From: Clostridia bacterium
GTDB taxonomy: Bacteria > Bacillota > Clostridia > Oscillospirales > CAG-272
Assembly (NCBI GenBank): GCA_017560565.1
Contig: JAFZET010000200.1
Location: 1 to 36,121 of the forward strand
Direction of reading: 5' to 3'
Length of the DNA: 36,121 nucleotides
Part shown: positions 29,053 through 35,808 of the stretch, in pieces
How positions within the stretch are numbered: position 1 is the stretch's first letter
Layout of the letters: the number at the start of each line of letters is the position of its first letter
Translations under genes and position numbers: made by a program
Notes under the pieces: generated by a model
Seen by the model: the letters and a program-made list of their open reading frames with translations, nothing else
Databases searched by the model: none
Told to the model about the DNA's origin: nothing

Positions 29053-30081
29053 TTACTGTGCCGCATAGGCAAGAATGGCATCTGCCACATCATCCGCTGC
29101 GGTATATACAATGGTGGAACCCTTGGGGCTGTAGTATGTCTGTCCGTTCTCGGATGTGCCGAACAGGATCACATAGTTTGCGTCCACTTTGGTGGTCTGA
29201 CCGGAGGATTCTGTCGTGTTTGTGCCGCTGTTTACGGCAACGGATTTCTTATAGTTCAGGGTCAGGCTGCGGGTACCGTCGATGCCGTAGACCTCTGCCA
29301 TTTCCGTACTGTCGGCATAGTAGTCCGCCCAGGACAGCAGATCCAGTTCACAGAACATACCGTACAGATCGGTTACGTCCTGGCTGTATACCGTGGATAC
29401 CGTTCCGTCTTCGGCGGTCACTTCTTCGGCAGTCTGCTTCCATTCCGCAGAAGCGTCACCGTCTGTAATCGTGAAGCTGTTGATATCCGCATCCGTCAGT
29501 GTGGTCATTGCCGTATCCAGAACGATCATGTCTTCTGTCGTGGTCTGGAAATAGGTCAGAAGCCCGGAGGCGATCATATACACTGCACCGTCGTCATTCC
29601 GGAAATAGTATGCATTATTGAAGCTGTTCCGGTCGCCGATGGCGTATTTGTACGTAGTACCTGCACCATAGCTGACATGGATCTCACATACGGGGTTGTC
29701 CAGACCGAACATGGAAGCATCTCCGTCCTCTACAGACCGCATGGCGCCGATGGAAGCAATAGCCGCTCCCAGACCTGCCGCTGTCTGCTGATCCAGAGGA
29801 AACTTCGGATCTTCCGCCAGTGTCCAGACCCCGCCGGACTGGTTCAGGGTGATCCAGTCCCCGCCGTCCGTGCGGTATTTCAGTTCGGTGATCTGTGTAT
29901 AATCCTGCTCCGCCAGCATGATGGTGGTATCTGCGGCAGCGGCGGCGGCGGCTTCGGCTTCTCTGCGGTCATTGGCAGCAGCCAGCCCGAAGTATGCGGC
30001 AGCCATCACACACATGATCCCCGCCAGCACCAGCAGAGGCAGTGCTTTATTTTTCTTTTTTCGTTTCGGTGTATTCTGCAA
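29053..30081 (-). CDS. DUF4340-like membrane-anchored accessory protein of the Gld-like ABC system
   Basis: N-terminal TM helix, W.L…FPLDQ, FGLD.P, IGD.N…YY; probable TTG start 8 nt after AAGGAG. Confidence 0.75.
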   Translation of the reverse strand: MQNTPKRKKKNKALPLLVLAGIMCVMAAAYFGLAAANDRREAEAAAAAAADTTIMLAEQDYTQITELKYRTDGGDWITLNQSGGVWTLAEDPKFPLDQQTAAGLGAAIASIGAMRSVEDGDASMFGLDNPVCEIHVSYGAGTTYKYAIGDRNSFNNAYYFRNDDGAVYMIASGLLTYFQTTTEDMIVLDTAMTTLTDADINSFTITDGDASAEWKQTAEEVTAEDGTVSTVYSQDVTDLYGMFCELDLLSWADYYADSTEMAEVYGIDGTRSLTLNYKKSVAVNSGTNTTESSGQTTKVDANYVILFGTSENGQTYYSPKGSTIVYTAADDVADAILAYAAQ

Positions 30082-30103
30082 GGTTTTCACTCCTTACCAA
30101 AAG

Positions 30104-31591
30104 TTAGCGTTTCCGTCTGCGGATCCAGACTACAAAACCGGCTGCCAGCATGGCAAGCGGGAGGATGAAGATCACGATAATGGACCACAGACTGCTCTGG
30201 GCTGCGGTCAGTGTCAGTGCTTCCACCTGAAGCTGTTTTGCCAGAATGGACAGGGAGATCTGGTTTTCTGCCATCCAGCTTACAGAGCCCATAAACACAG
30301 CGGAGTTGCCGCCGGAAATATAGCTGTCATCGGAAGAGCTGGTGATGGAGGGGGAAGCATACCATACAAAACGGTAATCCGCCTCTCTGGTACCGTCCGC
30401 TGTACCGGTGACTGCCGCCGCCAGATAGAACTGCCCGGACAGGTCGCCGTCTTCTTTATCCATGGTGTTGAAGGAACCGGAGGCAGGTACTGCCTTCACG
30501 TAAGCACCGGAAGAAGTGGACAGCATGGGGATCACGGAGCCTTCGCCCTTGCCATTGGCAATGATACCGTGGGAAGCGTGCATCAGAGCGTACCGGGTAT
30601 TTTCGCTGACCAGTGCCATGGGACCGGTGGAACCGAATCCGGGCAGCAGAGAATAGGGATACCCGGTGTAATGGTTGCGATCGGTTTCAAACACGATACC
30701 GTCTGCCGGTTCCAGACCCAGCTCAGCCGCCAGTGCGGACAGGTTGGGCATGCCCAGTTCACTGTAATTGGCGTAGCTGGTCACCAGAATGATGCTGCCG
30801 CCTTCCGCCAGATACTGCCGGAGCATATTCAGCTCGTCACCGTTGATATCGCCGGTGGGATTGTTGATCAGGATTATGGAACAGTCGGCGGGAATCACAT
30901 CGACCGTCAGCAGGGACAGCGTATTCATACCTACATTTTCAGCCGTGATATATGTCTGATAGGTGGCATCCAGTGCGGTTTCGCCATGTCCCTCCAGCTC
31001 GTACAGAACCGGCAGGTCTTCTCTGGTCACATAGTCCACTGCCGTGGTGAATGCCAGCTCACCGTTGAAGTACGTAGTGCCGGTGGGCATTACGCCGTAG
31101 TACATATAGTTGTAATAATCTTCTTCGGAATACTGGGTGGTGTAGATTTCATAATAATCCAGCACATAATGACGCAGGTCACTGGTCACGATGACGCTGT
31201 TGGAAGAAAGCTGCTCTTCCGTATACTGGGAAATAAAAGCAGGATTGATGGCAGGGTCGATGACGGATACCTTTACGTGTTTGCTCAGGGATTCATACCG
31301 TTCCAGCAGGTTGACGATGGTGGAATCCTCAGTCCCCCGTTCAGCCAGTACATAGAAGTACACATCTCTGTCCACGCCTGCCAGCACACCTTCGGTTTCT
31401 TCTCCTACGGTGTACAGCTGCAGGGAACTGGTATCCAGCATGGTGAATGCACCGGGCAGTTCTCCCACAAACAGGTTAACAAGCACGGCGATCACGATCA
31501 CCACAGCGGTAACGGTCACATTGAAGGAACCGATTTTCAGCATTTTTCTGTTCCGGGAGCCGGAAGTTTTGGTTTTCTTTTCGGTATTCAT
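30104..31591 (-). CDS. GldG-like ABC transporter auxiliary membrane protein
   Basis: N- and C-terminal TM helices, D.S…LYT, LL.RY, IDP..NP, GE..FT.A, GHGE, P..DI…E…L..YL..GG, ending W.RRRKR. Confidence 0.85.
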   Translation of the reverse strand: MNTEKKTKTSGSRNRKMLKIGSFNVTVTAVVIVIAVLVNLFVGELPGAFTMLDTSSLQLYTVGEETEGVLAGVDRDVYFYVLAERGTEDSTIVNLLERYESLSKHVKVSVIDPAINPAFISQYTEEQLSSNSVIVTSDLRHYVLDYYEIYTTQYSEEDYYNYMYYGVMPTGTTYFNGELAFTTAVDYVTREDLPVLYELEGHGETALDATYQTYITAENVGMNTLSLLTVDVIPADCSIILINNPTGDINGDELNMLRQYLAEGGSIILVTSYANYSELGMPNLSALAAELGLEPADGIVFETDRNHYTGYPYSLLPGFGSTGPMALVSENTRYALMHASHGIIANGKGEGSVIPMLSTSSGAYVKAVPASGSFNTMDKEDGDLSGQFYLAAAVTGTADGTREADYRFVWYASPSITSSSDDSYISGGNSAVFMGSVSWMAENQISLSILAKQLQVEALTLTAAQSSLWSIIVIFILPLAMLAAGFVVWIRRRKR

Positions 31592-31605
31592 TGTCTTCCC
31601 TCCCC

Positions 31606-32469
31606 TCAGGACCAGCGTTTTTTATCCATGGACTGCACGGTCAGATACACAAACAGTGCCGCCACGGTCAGATAGTATACGATTGCGGTCAGATCAAAAA
31701 TGCCGTTGGTGAAAGAATACAGCCGGTCAAACAGTGCCAGTGCTTCCAGCAGATCCGGCAGTGCACCTGTGAACAGATCTTCCTTGATGAAATACAGCAC
31801 AGATACGATGGCCACCAGCACAGCAGTCACGCCCATGGATACTGTACTGTTCTTCACCATGACCTGCACCACAACACCGATCAGTACAGCGATCACCAGA
31901 AAACCGGCGAAAGAAGCTCCGGTGGATTCCGGAATCATTCCGGCAAGCCCCGCCATCAGATAGGTCAGCAGCAGCACGCCCACGCTGACAACAGCGGCGA
32001 TCACCTGGCTCTCCGTCAGGGAAGAGATGAACATCCCCACAGCGATCAGGGCACAGCCCAGCAGGAAGAACGCCAGAATGGAACCGTAGGCACTGGCAAA
32101 CCCGATGGTACCGTACCGGTTCAGGATCAGGGGATACACGCACATCACACCGGTGGGAACTGCCAGCACCGTGACCATAGCCAGATACTTGGCCAGTACA
32201 ACGGATGTCAGGCTTACCGGCAGGGCATACAGAAGCTGGTCGGTCTTTGCGTGTTTTTCTTCCGCCAGCGACCGCATGGTCAGCACGGGTACTGCAATCA
32301 GGAACACAAAGCTGACACCGGACAGAGCCGCTTCAAAGCCCGGATATCCGCCCATCAGATTGTATACCGTCATGTAGATACCGGTCATCAGCAGCAGAAA
32401 TGCCACAAAAATGGGAGCAGTCATACCGCAGAAATAGGAGTGCAGTTCTCTTTTGTAAATCGCAGACAT
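31606..32469 (-). CDS. ABC-2 type permease (GldF-like)
   Basis: M.AIYKREL.SYF, P.LTMR..AEE…TDQLL..LP, VLAKYLA, FISSLTESQVIAA. Confidence 0.9.
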   Translation of the reverse strand: MSAIYKRELHSYFCGMTAPIFVAFLLLMTGIYMTVYNLMGGYPGFEAALSGVSFVFLIAVPVLTMRSLAEEKHAKTDQLLYALPVSLTSVVLAKYLAMVTVLAVPTGVMCVYPLILNRYGTIGFASAYGSILAFFLLGCALIAVGMFISSLTESQVIAAVVSVGVLLLTYLMAGLAGMIPESTGASFAGFLVIAVLIGVVVQVMVKNSTVSMGVTAVLVAIVSVLYFIKEDLFTGALPDLLEALALFDRLYSFTNGIFDLTAIVYYLTVAALFVYLTVQSMDKKRWS

Positions 32470-32484
32470 GATTCACTCCTCCTT

Positions 32485-33621
32485 TCAGTTGCCGCCGAAC
32501 AGCGGTTTGTAATCGTCATTATCGTTTCCGGCTTCAGCGGCGGGCTTTTCAGCGGGAGCGGTTTCTTCGGCAGGCGTTTCCGGTGCAGATGTCTCCTGTT
32601 CCGCCGCCTGTCTTTCTCCGATCTGTCCGAAAATATCCTCCGCACGGATCCGGGTGTCTTCCGGCGTTTCCGCTTCTTCCGCTCTGTTCCGCTTCTGGGA
32701 TTCGGTCAGGGCAAGGAATACCTTTTCCAGGGTCACTTCCTCATACTGCATGGCAATGATGGGCAGACGCCGTTCCGCAAAGGTGAAGAACACATGATCC
32801 CGGATGTCCTCTTTACCGGGAACCTCCAGACGCAGGTGGGTGCTGTTTTCTCCTGCCTGTACTTCGATTCCGCCAACACCTTCCAGTGTACCGGCGGCTG
32901 CTTTCACCGCATCTTCCGAACCGCGGACGTCCATATCAATGTAGCTCTTGCCTTCGTTGAGCTTGGTCAGGTTTTCGATGGTATCACTGGCCACGATCTT
33001 CCCGGCGGCAATGATGATGACATAGTCACACACGGCACTGATTTCGGTCAGAATATGGCTGGACAGGATCACGGTATGGTCTTTGCCCAGTTCACGGATC
33101 AGATCCCGGATTTCTATAATCTGCAGGGGGTCAAGACCAACGGTGGGCTCGTCCAGAATGATGATCTCCGGATCTCCCAGAATGGCCTGTGCGATCCCCA
33201 CACGCTGCCGGTACCCCTTGGACAGGTTCTTGATCAGCCGGGAGCGCATGGGTGTCAGCGATGTCTTTGCGATCACCCGATCCACACCGTCATCCAGTGC
33301 TTTTCCCTTCAGACCCTTGGCTCTGCCCACAAAATACAGATATTCCTCCGGGGACATATCGGTGTACAGGGGCGGCAGTTCCGGCAGGTATCCGATGCAG
33401 GACTTGGCTTCCACCGGATCTTCGTAAATGTCGTAACCGTTGATGGTCACTTCTCCCTCCGTGGCGGCCAGACATCCCGTAATGATATTCATAGTGGTGG
33501 ATTTCCCCGCACCGTTGGGACCAAGGAACCCGTAGATCCGTCCCTTTTCCACGGTAAAGCTCACATCACGGACAGCTTCAAAGTCCCCGTACCGCTTTAC
33601 CAGATGTTTTACTTCGATCAA
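32485..33621 (-). CDS. ABC transporter ATP-binding protein (GldA-like) with acidic C-terminal tail
   Basis: GPNGAGKST, LSKGYRQRVG, ILDEPT.GLDP, SSHIL; TTG start after AAGGAGG. Confidence 0.95.
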   Translation of the reverse strand: MIEVKHLVKRYGDFEAVRDVSFTVEKGRIYGFLGPNGAGKSTTMNIITGCLAATEGEVTINGYDIYEDPVEAKSCIGYLPELPPLYTDMSPEEYLYFVGRAKGLKGKALDDGVDRVIAKTSLTPMRSRLIKNLSKGYRQRVGIAQAILGDPEIIILDEPTVGLDPLQIIEIRDLIRELGKDHTVILSSHILTEISAVCDYVIIIAAGKIVASDTIENLTKLNEGKSYIDMDVRGSEDAVKAAAGTLEGVGGIEVQAGENSTHLRLEVPGKEDIRDHVFFTFAERRLPIIAMQYEEVTLEKVFLALTESQKRNRAEEAETPEDTRIRAEDIFGQIGERQAAEQETSAPETPAEETAPAEKPAAEAGNDNDDYKPLFGGN

Positions 33622-33811
33622 GATTATATTTCCTCCTTGCGGCAAAATTTCGCAGAATTGCATGGAATAAAAATATTATACCACATCTTGGTGAAGAATT
33701 GTTGAACATTTTTTGGTGGGTGTCTGAATAATATTCAAACAGTAGAGTAAAACGAAGAAAAACGATGGAATAAAGAGAAAAACAAAATTTGGTTTTGTCA
33801 GGGAACTGAAT

Positions 33812-34651
33812 TTACAGCAGATCTTCTGTTTTTTTCCAGATATCCAGGGTGTGATGGCTTGCGCCTGCCAGATCCGGACGTTCGCAGATGGTGTTGTGGT
33901 ATGCCAGATACAGCCGGAAGGTCTCCTCGTCCATGGTGTCAATGTTTTCCTGCATATACTTTGTCCCCATATCTGTGCCGATAAAGTGAAGCCTTTCTGC
34001 CTGCGGGGCAAAATGGGCAAGAAGCCGGTCTGCATCATCCCTGCGGATCAGCTCAAACAGCTCTGCCGGAGTGGAATACAGCCGGAAATCATTGTCTACC
34101 AGTCCCCGCCGCATCAGATCATGGATCCGGTAACTCCCGCTTTCGTCCCGCTGGAAGCAGTACTGGAAGACTGTGGCATCTGCCATACAGTAGGCAATCC
34201 CGATGATCCCGCCGGATCGCGTCAGCCGCAGTGCTTCGGTGAGTGCGGTGATCTTGTCCTGGCTTTCGTACAGGTGGTACATGGGTCCCAGCACCAGAAC
34301 CATGTCGTATGCTCCCTCCGGCAGGAACGACAGATCCAGTGCATTCCCCTGATGGGTGGAAATACGCATCTCCGGTGTGATCTTTTCCCGCAGAAGAGCG
34401 AGATTGTGCGGGATCAGCTCCACTGCGGTCACCTCGTATCCTTCCGATGCCAGCGCAAGGGAATACCGTCCGGTGCCTGCGCCGATCTCCAGAATCCTTG
34501 TCCCCGGTGTCAGATACCGGTGAATGTACCGCATGGTTGTGAGGTATTCCACCTGTCCGTGGCGGGAGAGAAGCCGTCCTTCTTCATCATAGCGGCTGTA
34601 GTAGGCGTTCAGGGCATCGTAGGTTTCGGTTTGCCGTTTTTGGCTGTTCAT
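33812..34651 (-). CDS. class I SAM-dependent methyltransferase
   Basis: ILEIGAGTGRY, VTAVEL, GNA.DLS, YD.VL.LGPMYHL; GAGGAGG RBS. Confidence 0.93.
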   Translation of the reverse strand: MNSQKRQTETYDALNAYYSRYDEEGRLLSRHGQVEYLTTMRYIHRYLTPGTRILEIGAGTGRYSLALASEGYEVTAVELIPHNLALLREKITPEMRISTHQGNALDLSFLPEGAYDMVLVLGPMYHLYESQDKITALTEALRLTRSGGIIGIAYCMADATVFQYCFQRDESGSYRIHDLMRRGLVDNDFRLYSTPAELFELIRRDDADRLLAHFAPQAERLHFIGTDMGTKYMQENIDTMDEETFRLYLAYHNTICERPDLAGASHHTLDIWKKTEDLL

Positions 34652-34674
34652 ACAGTTTTCCTCCTCATAAAAAT

Positions 34675-34725
34675 AAAAAAGGCAGACGGTGTGCGGATGG
34701 AAAATCCGGTTCTCGTCTGCCTTTT
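34675..34725 (-). terminator. attenuator (premature intrinsic terminator) in the methyltransferase leader
   Basis: AAAAGGCAGACG…CGGAT-tttcc-ATCCG…CGTCTGCCTTTTTT located just upstream of the RBS. Confidence 0.8.
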
Positions 34726-34747
34726 GTGGTTTATAGAAATATTCCTG

Positions 34748-34840
34748 TCAGAATACAAAATCTCCACGACAAAGCAGACCTTGGGTATACGCATACCAAG
34801 GCCAACCGAAAGTATAGGCATTCATACAAACCCGTGCCAT
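34748..34840 (-). CDS. putative 30-aa leader peptide MARVCMNAYTFGWPWYAYTQGLLCRGDFVF
   Basis: AGGAG 9 nt before the ATG; lies between a promoter and a terminator; encodes the antiterminator strand. Confidence 0.7.
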   Translation of the reverse strand: MARVCMNAYTFGWPWYAYTQGLLCRGDFVF

Positions 34841-34874
34841 ACTTACCTGCTCCTGTCCAATGAAAATTTGCATC

Positions 34875-34903
34875 ATTATAGCACAATATATGCGCCATGG
34901 CAA
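34875..34903 (-). promoter_or_regulatory. sigma-A promoter of the leader-methyltransferase transcript
   Basis: TTGCCA-N17-TATAAT with TG extension. Confidence 0.8.
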
Positions 34904-34953: not shown

Positions 34954-35808
34954 TTACATATCCCACACCAGTGTGCCGCCCGCTTCCTTCACGGGAATAA
35001 AGACCGGCGTTTCCGTCCGTCCGTCGGCGGGATTGTTGGGGGAATGAAGGGAGAGATACATCTGCCCGTCCGTGTCGGTGAAGAACATCCCATGACCGCC
35101 GTCGTATTCACCCGTCATGTTTTTTGAGTACAGCAGCACATCCTCCTGTGTCCACTTTCCGTCCACCTGACCGTCTGCGGAGCGTGCGATGCCCACACAA
35201 TACCCTGCGTCATCCCAGTTGGACCAGATCATCAGAAGCTGTCCGTCCGCTGTGCGGTATAGGAAACAGCCGTCTGTCACCTTGCCTTTCGCCCAGGCAG
35301 GCGCATCCGCCCGGAACAGTTCCACCGGCTCGGAGATAAAGTGCGTCAGATCATCCGACAGCTTTGCCGCATCCATCCGTCCGCATCCGTCTTCCGTGCA
35401 GGTCCATTCATGCACAAATACCATCCACGGCTGTCCGTCCGGGTCAACGTAGAACGTACCGTCAATGCAGTCCCAGTCACGGGGCGTGATGTGTCCGGCG
35501 GTGATCTGGACAAAAGGTCCTTCCGGGGCGGCGGATTCCAGAATGGTGCATCCCCTGTGACCGGTTTCACCGGAGAGATAGGTGGTGAACATATAGAACT
35601 TTCCTTTGTACCGGTGTACTTCCGGTGCCCAGCGGCATCCCTCCACATGAGGCGGATCCACGACCACCTGCCCGAGGCATTCCCAGTTTCCGGCAAGGGA
35701 ACCACTGGTGTTTCTGTAGCAGACCCAGCCGGTGCCGTAAGCGTAGTACACGCCGTTTTCCACAACAATAAACGGGTCACGGAGCTGTTTGATTTTAGAT
35801 ACGATCAT
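34954..35808 (-). CDS. glycoside hydrolase family 43 protein (cytoplasmic)
   Basis: RDPF (base), WAPEV, PEGPF, CIDGT (pKa modulator), HEW, TDG.F, DGGHGM.F. Confidence 0.9.
   Translation of the reverse strand: MIVSKIKQLRDPFIVVENGVYYAYGTGWVCYRNTSGSLAGNWECLGQVVVDPPHVEGCRWAPEVHRYKGKFYMFTTYLSGETGHRGCTILESAAPEGPFVQITAGHITPRDWDCIDGTFYVDPDGQPWMVFVHEWTCTEDGCGRMDAAKLSDDLTHFISEPVELFRADAPAWAKGKVTDGCFLYRTADGQLLMIWSNWDDAGYCVGIARSADGQVDGKWTQEDVLLYSKNMTGEYDGGHGMFFTDTDGQMYLSLHSPNNPADGRTETPVFIPVKEAGGTLVWDM

Follow-up and report, generated by a model that had tools for sequence, protein, structure and literature searches.

A candidate leader-peptide transcription attenuator ahead of a class I SAM-dependent methyltransferase gene in a narrow clade of Clostridia

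Described leaders and the layout of the locus

Attenuators of the trpL, pheL and his type share a four-segment layout in which the position of the ribosome in a short open reading frame (ORF) chooses the structure that forms. The ermC/ermB and cat/cmlA leaders act mainly by translational attenuation, through unmasking of a Shine-Dalgarno (SD) sequence, and stand ahead of recognised resistance genes. TnaC, which senses tryptophan, acts on Rho-dependent termination and needs residues W12, D16 and P24. In Bacillus subtilis, the S-adenosylmethionine (SAM) methyltransferase gene tlrB (yxjB) is controlled by a terminator together with a leader peptide of 9 aa on which ribosomes stall in response to a drug (PMC6851288). 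It is the closest working precedent, and one with the same gene class, for the element described here, which lies in a stretch of 36,121 nt (the window) of Clostridia bacterium contig JAFZET010000200.1 (GCA_017560565.1). On the minus strand, which carries all leader elements, an upstream ORF (uORF) and an intrinsic terminator precede the gene for a class I SAM-dependent methyltransferase (MTase). We hold with moderate confidence that transcription into the MTase gene is attenuated by this leader in a ribosome-dependent manner, through stalling on the leader peptide. Its parts, with the regulated gene, are the following.

34875..34903, minus strand: sigma-70-type promoter (-35 box TTGCCA at 34903-34898, 17-nt spacer, -10 box TATAAT at 34880-34875, TG ahead of the -10; 11/12 in the consensus scan)
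34850..34854, minus strand: SD sequence of the uORF, AGGAG, 9 nt ahead of the ATG at 34840
34748..34840, minus strand: uORF of 30 codons, MARVCMNAYTFGWPWYAYTQGLLCRGDFVF, stop codon TGA at 34750-34748, read from the sequence and the ORF list
34810..34844, minus strand: start-codon hairpin predicted by folding between the start region (AAGUAUGGCA) and codons 8-11 (UGCCUAUACUU), -8.2 to -10.1 kcal/mol in 4/4 known copies
34777..34803, minus strand: predicted internal hairpin P1 (GGCCUUGGUAU / AUACCCAAGGUC), codons 13-22, -12.4 kcal/mol in the window
34764..34779, minus strand: 5' strand of the putative antiterminator, GUCUGCUUUGUCGUGG, codons 21-26, with its partner CCACAAAAGGCAGAC at 34715-34729
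34675..34725, minus strand: intrinsic terminator AAAAGGCAGACG...CGUCUGCCUUUUUU, -22.5 kcal/mol in the window, with a U6 run
34660..34666, minus strand: SD sequence of the MTase gene, GAGGAGG, read from the sequence
33812..34651, minus strand: class I SAM-dependent MTase of 279 aa, ATG at 34651, the regulated gene

The promoter, uORF SD, uORF, hairpin, terminator and MTase ribosome-binding site were all found where the original prediction had placed them. Hairpin 34803-34777 and the pairing strands 34779-34764 and 34729-34715 agreed to the nucleotide, and the uORF has exactly the 30 codons and 8 aromatic residues claimed for it (Y9, F11, W13, W15, Y16, Y18, F28 and F30). The antiterminator partner consists of the terminator 5' arm and four bases upstream of it. 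A spacer of 19 nt separates the uORF stop codon from the terminator, whose stem (34725-34714 / 34688-34677) is followed by a U-run reaching 34675; its loop is longer than those covered by the simple terminator scan, which was limited to loops of <=8 nt and did not list it. The MTase ATG lies ~25 nt past the U-run and the promoter scan gave no promoter-like site 3' of the terminator, so transcription of the MTase gene must cross the terminator. Over the region, the consensus scan gave 3 promoter-like sites where shuffled sequences gave 1.5 +/- 1.3. For the 222-nt leader the folding energy is -70.7 kcal/mol (z = -3.68), a value equalled by 1/200 dinucleotide shuffles. Within the terminator loop (34696-34713, minus strand), a conserved GAACCGGAUUUUCC-like stretch forms a small inner hairpin in 4/4 sequences; stabilisation of the long stem, the only explanation offered, may account for this conservation.

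As in the tlrB leader, an SD-led short ORF and an intrinsic terminator stand ahead of a SAM-dependent methyltransferase gene; in the model proposed for tlrB, termination is prevented by the stalled ribosome, and the completed leader structure hides the leader's own start (PMC6851288). The tlrB leader differs in having a tylosin-dependent 9-aa peptide, MIIQFIRYR, with a C-terminal R/K-X-R/K stall; in a stalled ribosome that itself covers the terminator base, whereas a separate antiterminator helix is predicted here; and in controlling a 23S rRNA methyltransferase (PMC6851288), whereas the present MTase stays far below the Erm cut-off and has no RlmA model among the 25 families shown of 34. The R/K-X-R/K motif occurs in 0/4 of the peptides described here, which have 29-30 residues. 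In view of this and of the MTase matches, the element was not assigned to the class of macrolide-inducible rRNA-MTase leaders.

Conservation and alternative structures

Four copies of the leader are known: that of the window, those of two genomes from the same genus (G002 and G028) and one at a metagenome locus (L063). There is one copy per genome, and all 4 sit downstream of a GH43 gene, which in the window is as follows.

34954-35808, minus strand: GH43 glycosidase gene, upstream neighbour of the leader (Pfam Glyco_hydro_43, E 8.1e-33)

In 4/4 copies the uORF is promoter-proximal, has its own SD and is co-oriented with the MTase gene. All four also share the -35 box, the 17-nt spacing, the extended -10 of TGTGnTA type, an identical ACAGGAG, the ATG, TGGCCTTGGT, AAGGTCTGCTTTGT and the terminator arms, and the SD-ATG gap stays at 6-10 nt despite spacers that differ in sequence and length. 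Free divergence is seen in the spacers, in codons at both ends of the uORF (the first five and the last four) and between stop codon and terminator. The flanking GH43 gene, which gives a well-diverged neutral background, has 81-86% nucleotide identity, with pairwise 0.49-0.68 at its 4-fold sites and 40/113 of these invariant across all four. Invariant runs of 14-23 nt are present in GH43 too, which means that conservation of the leader is similar to that of a coding gene and does not exceed it.

The uORF has 29-30 codons in 4/4 sequences and its frame is the only one open throughout, the other two being interrupted by stop codons in 3/4 and 1/4 sequences. The sole indel, of 3 nt at codon 17, keeps the frame, and the stop codon (TGA or TAA) keeps its alignment column despite differences in the four codons ahead of it. 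At codons 7-16 (NAYTFGWPWY), the proportion of synonymous differences (pS) is 0.455, which is near the neutral level, and that of non-synonymous differences (pN) is 0.102, giving a pN/pS of 0.22, where the two alternative frames give 3.12 and 0.92; these are Nei-Gojobori-type sums over six non-independent pairs (Sd = 15, Nd = 15). Together with the kept SD-ATG gap, these features speak for translation of the uORF frame. At codons 18-26 the pattern is reversed (pS 0.07, pN 0.109): codons 21-24 show zero base changes in the four sequences, and codon 25 changes only at its first position (CGT->TGT, in L063). To judge from the alignment, codons 7-16 look peptide-constrained and codons 18-26 RNA-constrained, the latter because they form the antiterminator strand.

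The antiterminator duplex has a predicted energy of -19.8 kcal/mol in the window, -15.6 in G002, -21.8 in L063 and -14.5 in G028, matched or beaten by 3, 44, 0 and 3 of 1000 dinucleotide shuffles, respectively. When the whole 5' untranslated region (UTR) plus uORF is paired with the terminator 5' arm, the best duplex falls on strand 34779-34764. In alignment A4, 50/60 antiterminator cells are paired, against 42-54% in slid registers. The terminator ranges from -22.5 to -26.1 kcal/mol over the four sequences, and P1 keeps 8 of its 11 predicted pairs invariant while its loop varies in sequence and length. The fold z-score, the duplex compared with shuffles and the conservation in four sequences show that the leader unit exceeds chance.

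Folded alone, the leader domain forms a three-way junction whose arms are the start-codon hairpin, P1 and an outer helix. In 3/4 minimum-energy folds this outer helix is made by the 5'UTR/SD region and codons 21-29; the G002 fold and RNAalifold prefer the early ORF as its partner. In these predicted folds, the antiterminator strand is paired alternatively with the 5'UTR/SD region or with the early ORF, and the outer helix would act as an anti-antiterminator that, on the finished leader, also hides the SD and the start codon. A comparable architecture could serve a conditional terminator that works at the RNA level, riboswitch-like or bound by a protein or small RNA (sRNA), with the ORF incidental. 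The three-way junction, whose outer-helix 3' strand is shared with the antiterminator, is the usual layout of an aptamer and expression platform, and outer helix, start-codon hairpin and P1 recur in 3/4 minimum-energy folds. Codons 18-26 show hardly any synonymous change (pS 0.07), and in L063 a C->U change in the antiterminator strand is matched by a G->A change in the 5'UTR (read by eye) and also in the alifold helix (columns 49/104). Nevertheless, we consider such an RNA-level switch unlikely, since it needs no SD, no ATG held at 6-10 nt, no in-frame indel, no aligned stop codon and no pN/pS of 0.22. A distribution in one clade would be unusual for a metabolite riboswitch, and a permissive search of Rfam 15 returned 5 matches (E 0.31-7.6), none at the gathering threshold (best 20.4 bits against 63). 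Scanning by eye from stop codon to terminator revealed no conserved NusG-type pause motif.

The effect of a ribosome on the uORF was modelled by masked folds, in which the transcript was cut just past the terminator 5' arm and 27 nt around each peptidyl-site (P-site) codon were blocked. The probability of the antiterminator, P(antiterminator), was the following.

No ribosome: 0.33 in the window, 0.41 in G002, 0.77 in L063 and 0.15 in G028
P-site at codon 14: 0.99 in the window, 0.73 in G002, 0.99 in L063 and 1.00 in G028
P-site at codon 15: 0.99-1.00 in 4/4
P-site at codons 13-16: 0.99-1.00 in the window and 0.52-1.00 over all four
P-site anywhere between codon 17-18 and codon ~26: 0.00

In this model, the W-P-W(-Y) codons are the last ribosome positions that leave the antiterminator strand free, and a ribosome placed there would have the peptide-constrained residues in its upper exit tunnel. 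Part of this position dependence is a matter of geometry and would arise with any uORF placed directly 5' of such a strand.

The analysis shows the parts, their conservation, the frame-specific pattern of substitutions and the dependence of the alternative folds on ribosome position; from these we infer translation of the uORF, stalling at codons ~13-16, the resulting readthrough and a trigger. The strong promoter would produce a ~190-nt leader on which a ribosome loads at AGGAG/AUG during transcription. By default, the ribosome would run to the stop codon, or never load; the antiterminator strand (codons 21-26) would be covered by the ribosome or sequestered by the 5'UTR or early ORF, the 5' and 3' arms of the terminator would pair, and transcription would end at ~34675. 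Under induction, the ribosome would stall with its P-site at about codons 13-16 and a nascent chain ending in ...NAYTFGWPW(Y), melting P1 and the enclosing helix while its leading edge stays just short of the antiterminator strand. The freed strand would capture the terminator 5' arm on its emergence, and the polymerase would read into the MTase gene.

Several points weigh against this attenuator. The antiterminator has 0/15 pairs that change on both sides and 9/15 that never vary; its support in the alignment is therefore conservation only. On the complete leader, ribosome-masked equilibrium folds give the terminator P = 0.99-1.00 at every position, and as the terminator always wins at equilibrium, any switch must be kinetic. 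Much of the peptide 'conservation' in codons 18-26 is explained by RNA constraint, and the conservation of codons 8-10 and 13-26 can be accounted for by RNA pairing alone. Codons 8-11 pair with the start region, so that RNA constraint extends into the 'peptide' half too. Read by eye from the aligned sequences, the third position of codon 10 changes together with the base preceding GUAUG, its partner in the start-codon hairpin: the pair is A-U in the window and G-C in L063 and G028, and is C/U and unpaired in G002. The 'synonymous' ACU->ACC of codon 10 thus coincides with an A->G opposite it. The coding signal comes from few events (Sd = 15, Nd = 15, over non-independent pairs), and only four sequences from one narrow clade give low statistical power. 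The Pfam and NCBIfam libraries contain leader-peptide families; the peptides here had 0 matches in Pfam-A and NCBIfam (E up to 10) and in the ESM Atlas, and the uORF peptide contains no known arrest motif.

A last such point concerns G028, where promoter, 29-codon ORF and terminator are intact and a convergent gene ends 35 nt beyond the terminator:

L003 1699-3084 and L067 1-883, minus strand: convergent gene of G028 with a lipoprotein-type signal, MKRNISVLLLLVLLLSGCGG, read from the DNA

The size of this gene and its signal sequence lead us to guess that it encodes a solute-binding protein. The A-run/U-run terminator of G028 may serve both directions. The GNAT-MTase of this genome, whose MTase part shows 81% identity, is encoded 2.1 kb downstream of the leader and has an intergenic region of its own. 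The G028 leader may have an independent function, or it may have been orphaned recently; of the four copies it has the shortest complementarity to the terminator arm (~10 bp, -14.5 kcal/mol), which fits an orphan, as a single case.

The leader could also be a stand-alone small gene with its own promoter, making a ~190-nt sRNA and/or a 30-aa peptide and sharing its terminator with the upstream GH43 gene, the MTase being expressed through leaky readthrough. In G028, promoter, ORF and terminator persist despite the convergent next gene, as this would require, and the unit follows GH43 in 4/4 copies. A scan covering loops of <=8 nt listed no terminator-like site between the GH43 stop codon and the leader promoter. 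Attenuator-derived sRNAs and leader peptides with their own functions are on record (PMC7968998). We find this explanation improbable, given that in 3/4 copies the MTase starts ~25-30 nt past the terminator without a promoter of its own and that no part of the leader is better conserved than the segment that can pair with the terminator 5' arm. The reduction of this complementarity to ~10 bp in G028 is as expected if the switch is unused there. The single copy per genome and the lack of a protein-family match for the peptide also speak against a stand-alone gene.

The ribosome-dependent attenuation that was first proposed thus keeps part of its ground. The uORF and its pairing were expected to be kept in relatives, and uORF, terminator and antiterminator are present in 4/4 known copies; frame openness, the pN/pS of 0.22 and the masked folds point the same way, while the 0/15 covariation of the antiterminator and the partial RNA constraint on codons 18-26 do not. 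Of the helices that were expected to covary, the terminator stem shows compensatory changes at two pairs (A4 columns 155/204 and 157/202) and the antiterminator at none. Folding of both conformers gave the antiterminator on the cut transcript and favoured the terminator on the full leader.

The methyltransferase, its neighbours and the distribution of the leader

The MTase contains generic Pfam methyltransferase domains only. It reached no NCBIfam cut-off, the best of the 25 families shown of 34 being CpaM (54.4 bits against 180), and no RlmA model is found among these 25. An assignment to Erm was rejected because NF000499 scored 26.1 bits against a cut-off of 212, on the SAM-binding motif only. 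The locus resembles the ermC/ermB and cat/cmlA leaders in the nascent peptide of a uORF ahead of a methyltransferase or other gene, which in those leaders senses a drug; it differs in this score with the Erm hidden Markov model (HMM) and in peptides that match nothing in Pfam-A or NCBIfam. The predicted MTase structure has a mean predicted local distance difference test (pLDDT) score of 95.1, and its fold matches the uncharacterised TM1389 (2avn) and Escherichia coli CmoM/SmtA (4htf, 8joz) with template modelling (TM) scores of 0.66-0.71 and 13-20% identity. The best matches of the modelled fold are TM1389 and CmoM, not Erm. The suggestion in the original prediction that the MTase could be an inducible detoxification enzyme, like a role in resistance, finds no support in the Erm score or in these folds.

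The MTase has at least 7135 homologues at E <= 1e-20, and 11/15 of the closest database homologues are fusions of 427-440 aa with an N-terminal GNAT domain. The genes of G002 (L002 215-1498, minus strand) and G028 (L067 1030-2313, plus strand) also encode 427-aa GNAT-methyltransferase fusions. In the window (33812-34651, minus strand) and in L063 (1625-1694, plus strand), the MTase part starts directly, with the junctions MNSQKRQTETYD... and MQSETYT..., respectively. These differing N-terminal junctions suggest that the GNAT domain has been removed more than once. Several distant homologues have a GNAT-type-looking gene just upstream, as read by eye from C-terminal translations.

Downstream of the MTase gene lies a four-gene unit.

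29053-33663, minus strand: four-gene ABC unit, with an ABC_tran ATPase of 392 aa, an ABC-2 permease, ABC_transp_aux/DUF7088 and DUF4340

An extended -10-like sequence, TGGTATAAT, was seen by eye ahead of this unit at ~33680, where the promoter scan lists no site; it suggests that the ABC unit may have a promoter of its own. In G002, the MTase gene is followed at a comparable distance by an ORF of 387 aa (L099 2999-4162, minus strand).

The gene order bears on the possibility that the uORF encodes a precursor of a ribosomally synthesised and post-translationally modified peptide (RiPP), tailored by the GNAT/MTase, with the hairpin setting the ratio of precursor to enzyme. In lantibiotic operons, a small ORF is likewise followed by a hairpin and then by an enzyme gene. 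The MTase gave a sub-threshold match to a daptide MTase model (36.2 bits against a cut-off of 175) and weak similarity to a cypemycin N-terminal MTase chain (E 1.2e-05). We regard a RiPP precursor as extremely unlikely: no cyclase, protease or dedicated exporter is found at the locus, the downstream ABC system is a four-gene unit with the own promoter suggested by TGGTATAAT (not in the scan), the peptide matches no family, and profile and motif scans found no such uORF at 54 other loci of MTase homologues (37-55% identity).

DNA searches for the leader covered 61 relatives and then all 53 genomes of the genus. Besides the genome of the window itself, extended matches were obtained in G002 (85% over 236 nt) and G028 (75% over 122 nt), and the remaining matches in these sets were 23-39-nt pieces of promoter or terminator only. 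A peptide-pattern scan of species-representative genomes gave 14 stretches, of which 3 were confirmed; L060 and L061 score as L002 and L003, and the third confirmed match was rejected as a spurious partial one (residues 17-30 only). The same type of scan in metagenomes gave 94 stretches, 3 of them confirmed, with L063 as the sole full copy. L064 and L065 match 8-10 residues; in the profile search L064 had E = 0.11 and L065 was unlisted. No similar uORF or leader was seen upstream of 25 distant MTase loci (L009-L033), 20 of which had the full 450 nt of upstream sequence (195 nt in L030, 61 in L031, 55 in L033, and 3 in L010 and L022). Across 98 loci, including the 29 family loci L070-L098, an nhmmer profile and a scan for small ORFs with WPW returned the known copies only. 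A search with P0012 for MTase relatives at 68-72% identity yielded one unrelated locus. Covariance model R1, run over 151 family genomes, matched 11 besides that of the window, at <=33 bits; the 4 alignments inspected were of the terminator only and these matches were rejected. A DNA pattern scan gave 5 matches, 2 of them known copies and 3 chance matches in unrelated phyla. The leader element is restricted to one narrow clade, and the breadth that was expected of it, a peptide core kept across Clostridia with resistance-type genes downstream, was not found.

Of 20 sequencing runs, 2 of them RNA, runs X4, X5, X7 and X10 were compared with the locus. DNA runs X4 and X7, from animal-gut metagenomes, carry further G002-like leader variants. 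In the RNA runs (n = 2, shares 0.06-0.08), contigs fall only on MTase-internal or GH43 parts and none on the leader. One contig from RNA library X5 (217 nt, 1 mismatch) covers window positions 34300-34452, within the MTase coding sequence, and is not proof of transcription.

Possible triggers and significance

The proposed stall could be triggered by an antibiotic or other small molecule that binds in the tunnel, or by a shortage of Trp or other aromatic aminoacyl-tRNA; we lean towards a peptide-dependent stall. An attenuator sensing aminoacyl-tRNA supply would follow the logic of trpL and pheL, and the locus resembles the trp, phe and his leaders in its layout of anti-antiterminator, antiterminator and terminator and in the two Trp codons at the proposed stall. 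These codons, 13 and 15, are invariant in 4/4 sequences, and aromatic residues make up 8/30 positions in the window, 7/30 in G002, 5/29 in L063 and 7/29 in G028. With codon 13 or 15 in the aminoacyl site (P-site 12 or 14), P(antiterminator) is 0.34-1.00. Sensing of tRNA supply is nevertheless distinctly unlikely: the regulated gene encodes an MTase or GNAT-MTase and does not serve the biosynthesis or transport of aromatic amino acids, the Trp codons are split by Pro instead of standing in tandem, and the flanking residues N7-G12 look peptide-constrained, which starvation sensing would have no need of. Assignment to the trpL-type class was likewise rejected, with two non-adjacent Trp codons and an MTase or GNAT-MTase downstream.

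For a peptide-dependent stall, artificial and natural arrest peptides offer partial likenesses. The uORF peptide shares with TnaC an aromatic-rich nascent chain and a Trp-Pro at the stall point, and differs in that W12, D16 and P24 have no counterpart in the window peptide. An artificial arrest peptide, FXXYXIWPPP, is exemplified by FQKYGIWPPP (PMC11669330). This example and the YTFGWPWY of the window have aromatic-Gly-(x)-Trp-Pro in common, a lead and not a test; the two are one residue out of register, and the window peptide has one Pro in place of PPP. A full-text literature search did not find FGWPW, GWPWY or AYTFGW, and all matches listed for WPWY were on SARS-CoV-2. The leader peptide is previously undescribed, the control type itself being already known.

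A more specific version, which we put forward tentatively and consider doubtful, is that NAYTFGWPW(Y) is an arrest peptide that senses a small aromatic molecule in the tunnel, in the way that TnaC senses tryptophan, and switches on the GNAT-methyltransferase. The molecule would be a gut or rumen metabolite, for example an aromatic amine, or a ribosome-targeting antibiotic, and the GNAT-methyltransferase would modify either the inducing compound or the translation apparatus. The 90 nt of the uORF would then be doubly encoded, with a sensor peptide in the first half and an RNA switch in the second.

Should the stall not be real, the locus would be one more predicted attenuator of narrow distribution. 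The division of one short ORF into a peptide-constrained half and an RNA-constrained half would make a useful small example of overlapping codes. To our knowledge, almost no regulatory leaders have been characterised in uncultured gut and rumen Clostridia, and if the stall is real, these bacteria would have a nascent-peptide sensor of a new sequence, built around an unusual W-P-W core. In that case, knowing its inducer would offer a first functional clue to a very large MTase family of unknown function.

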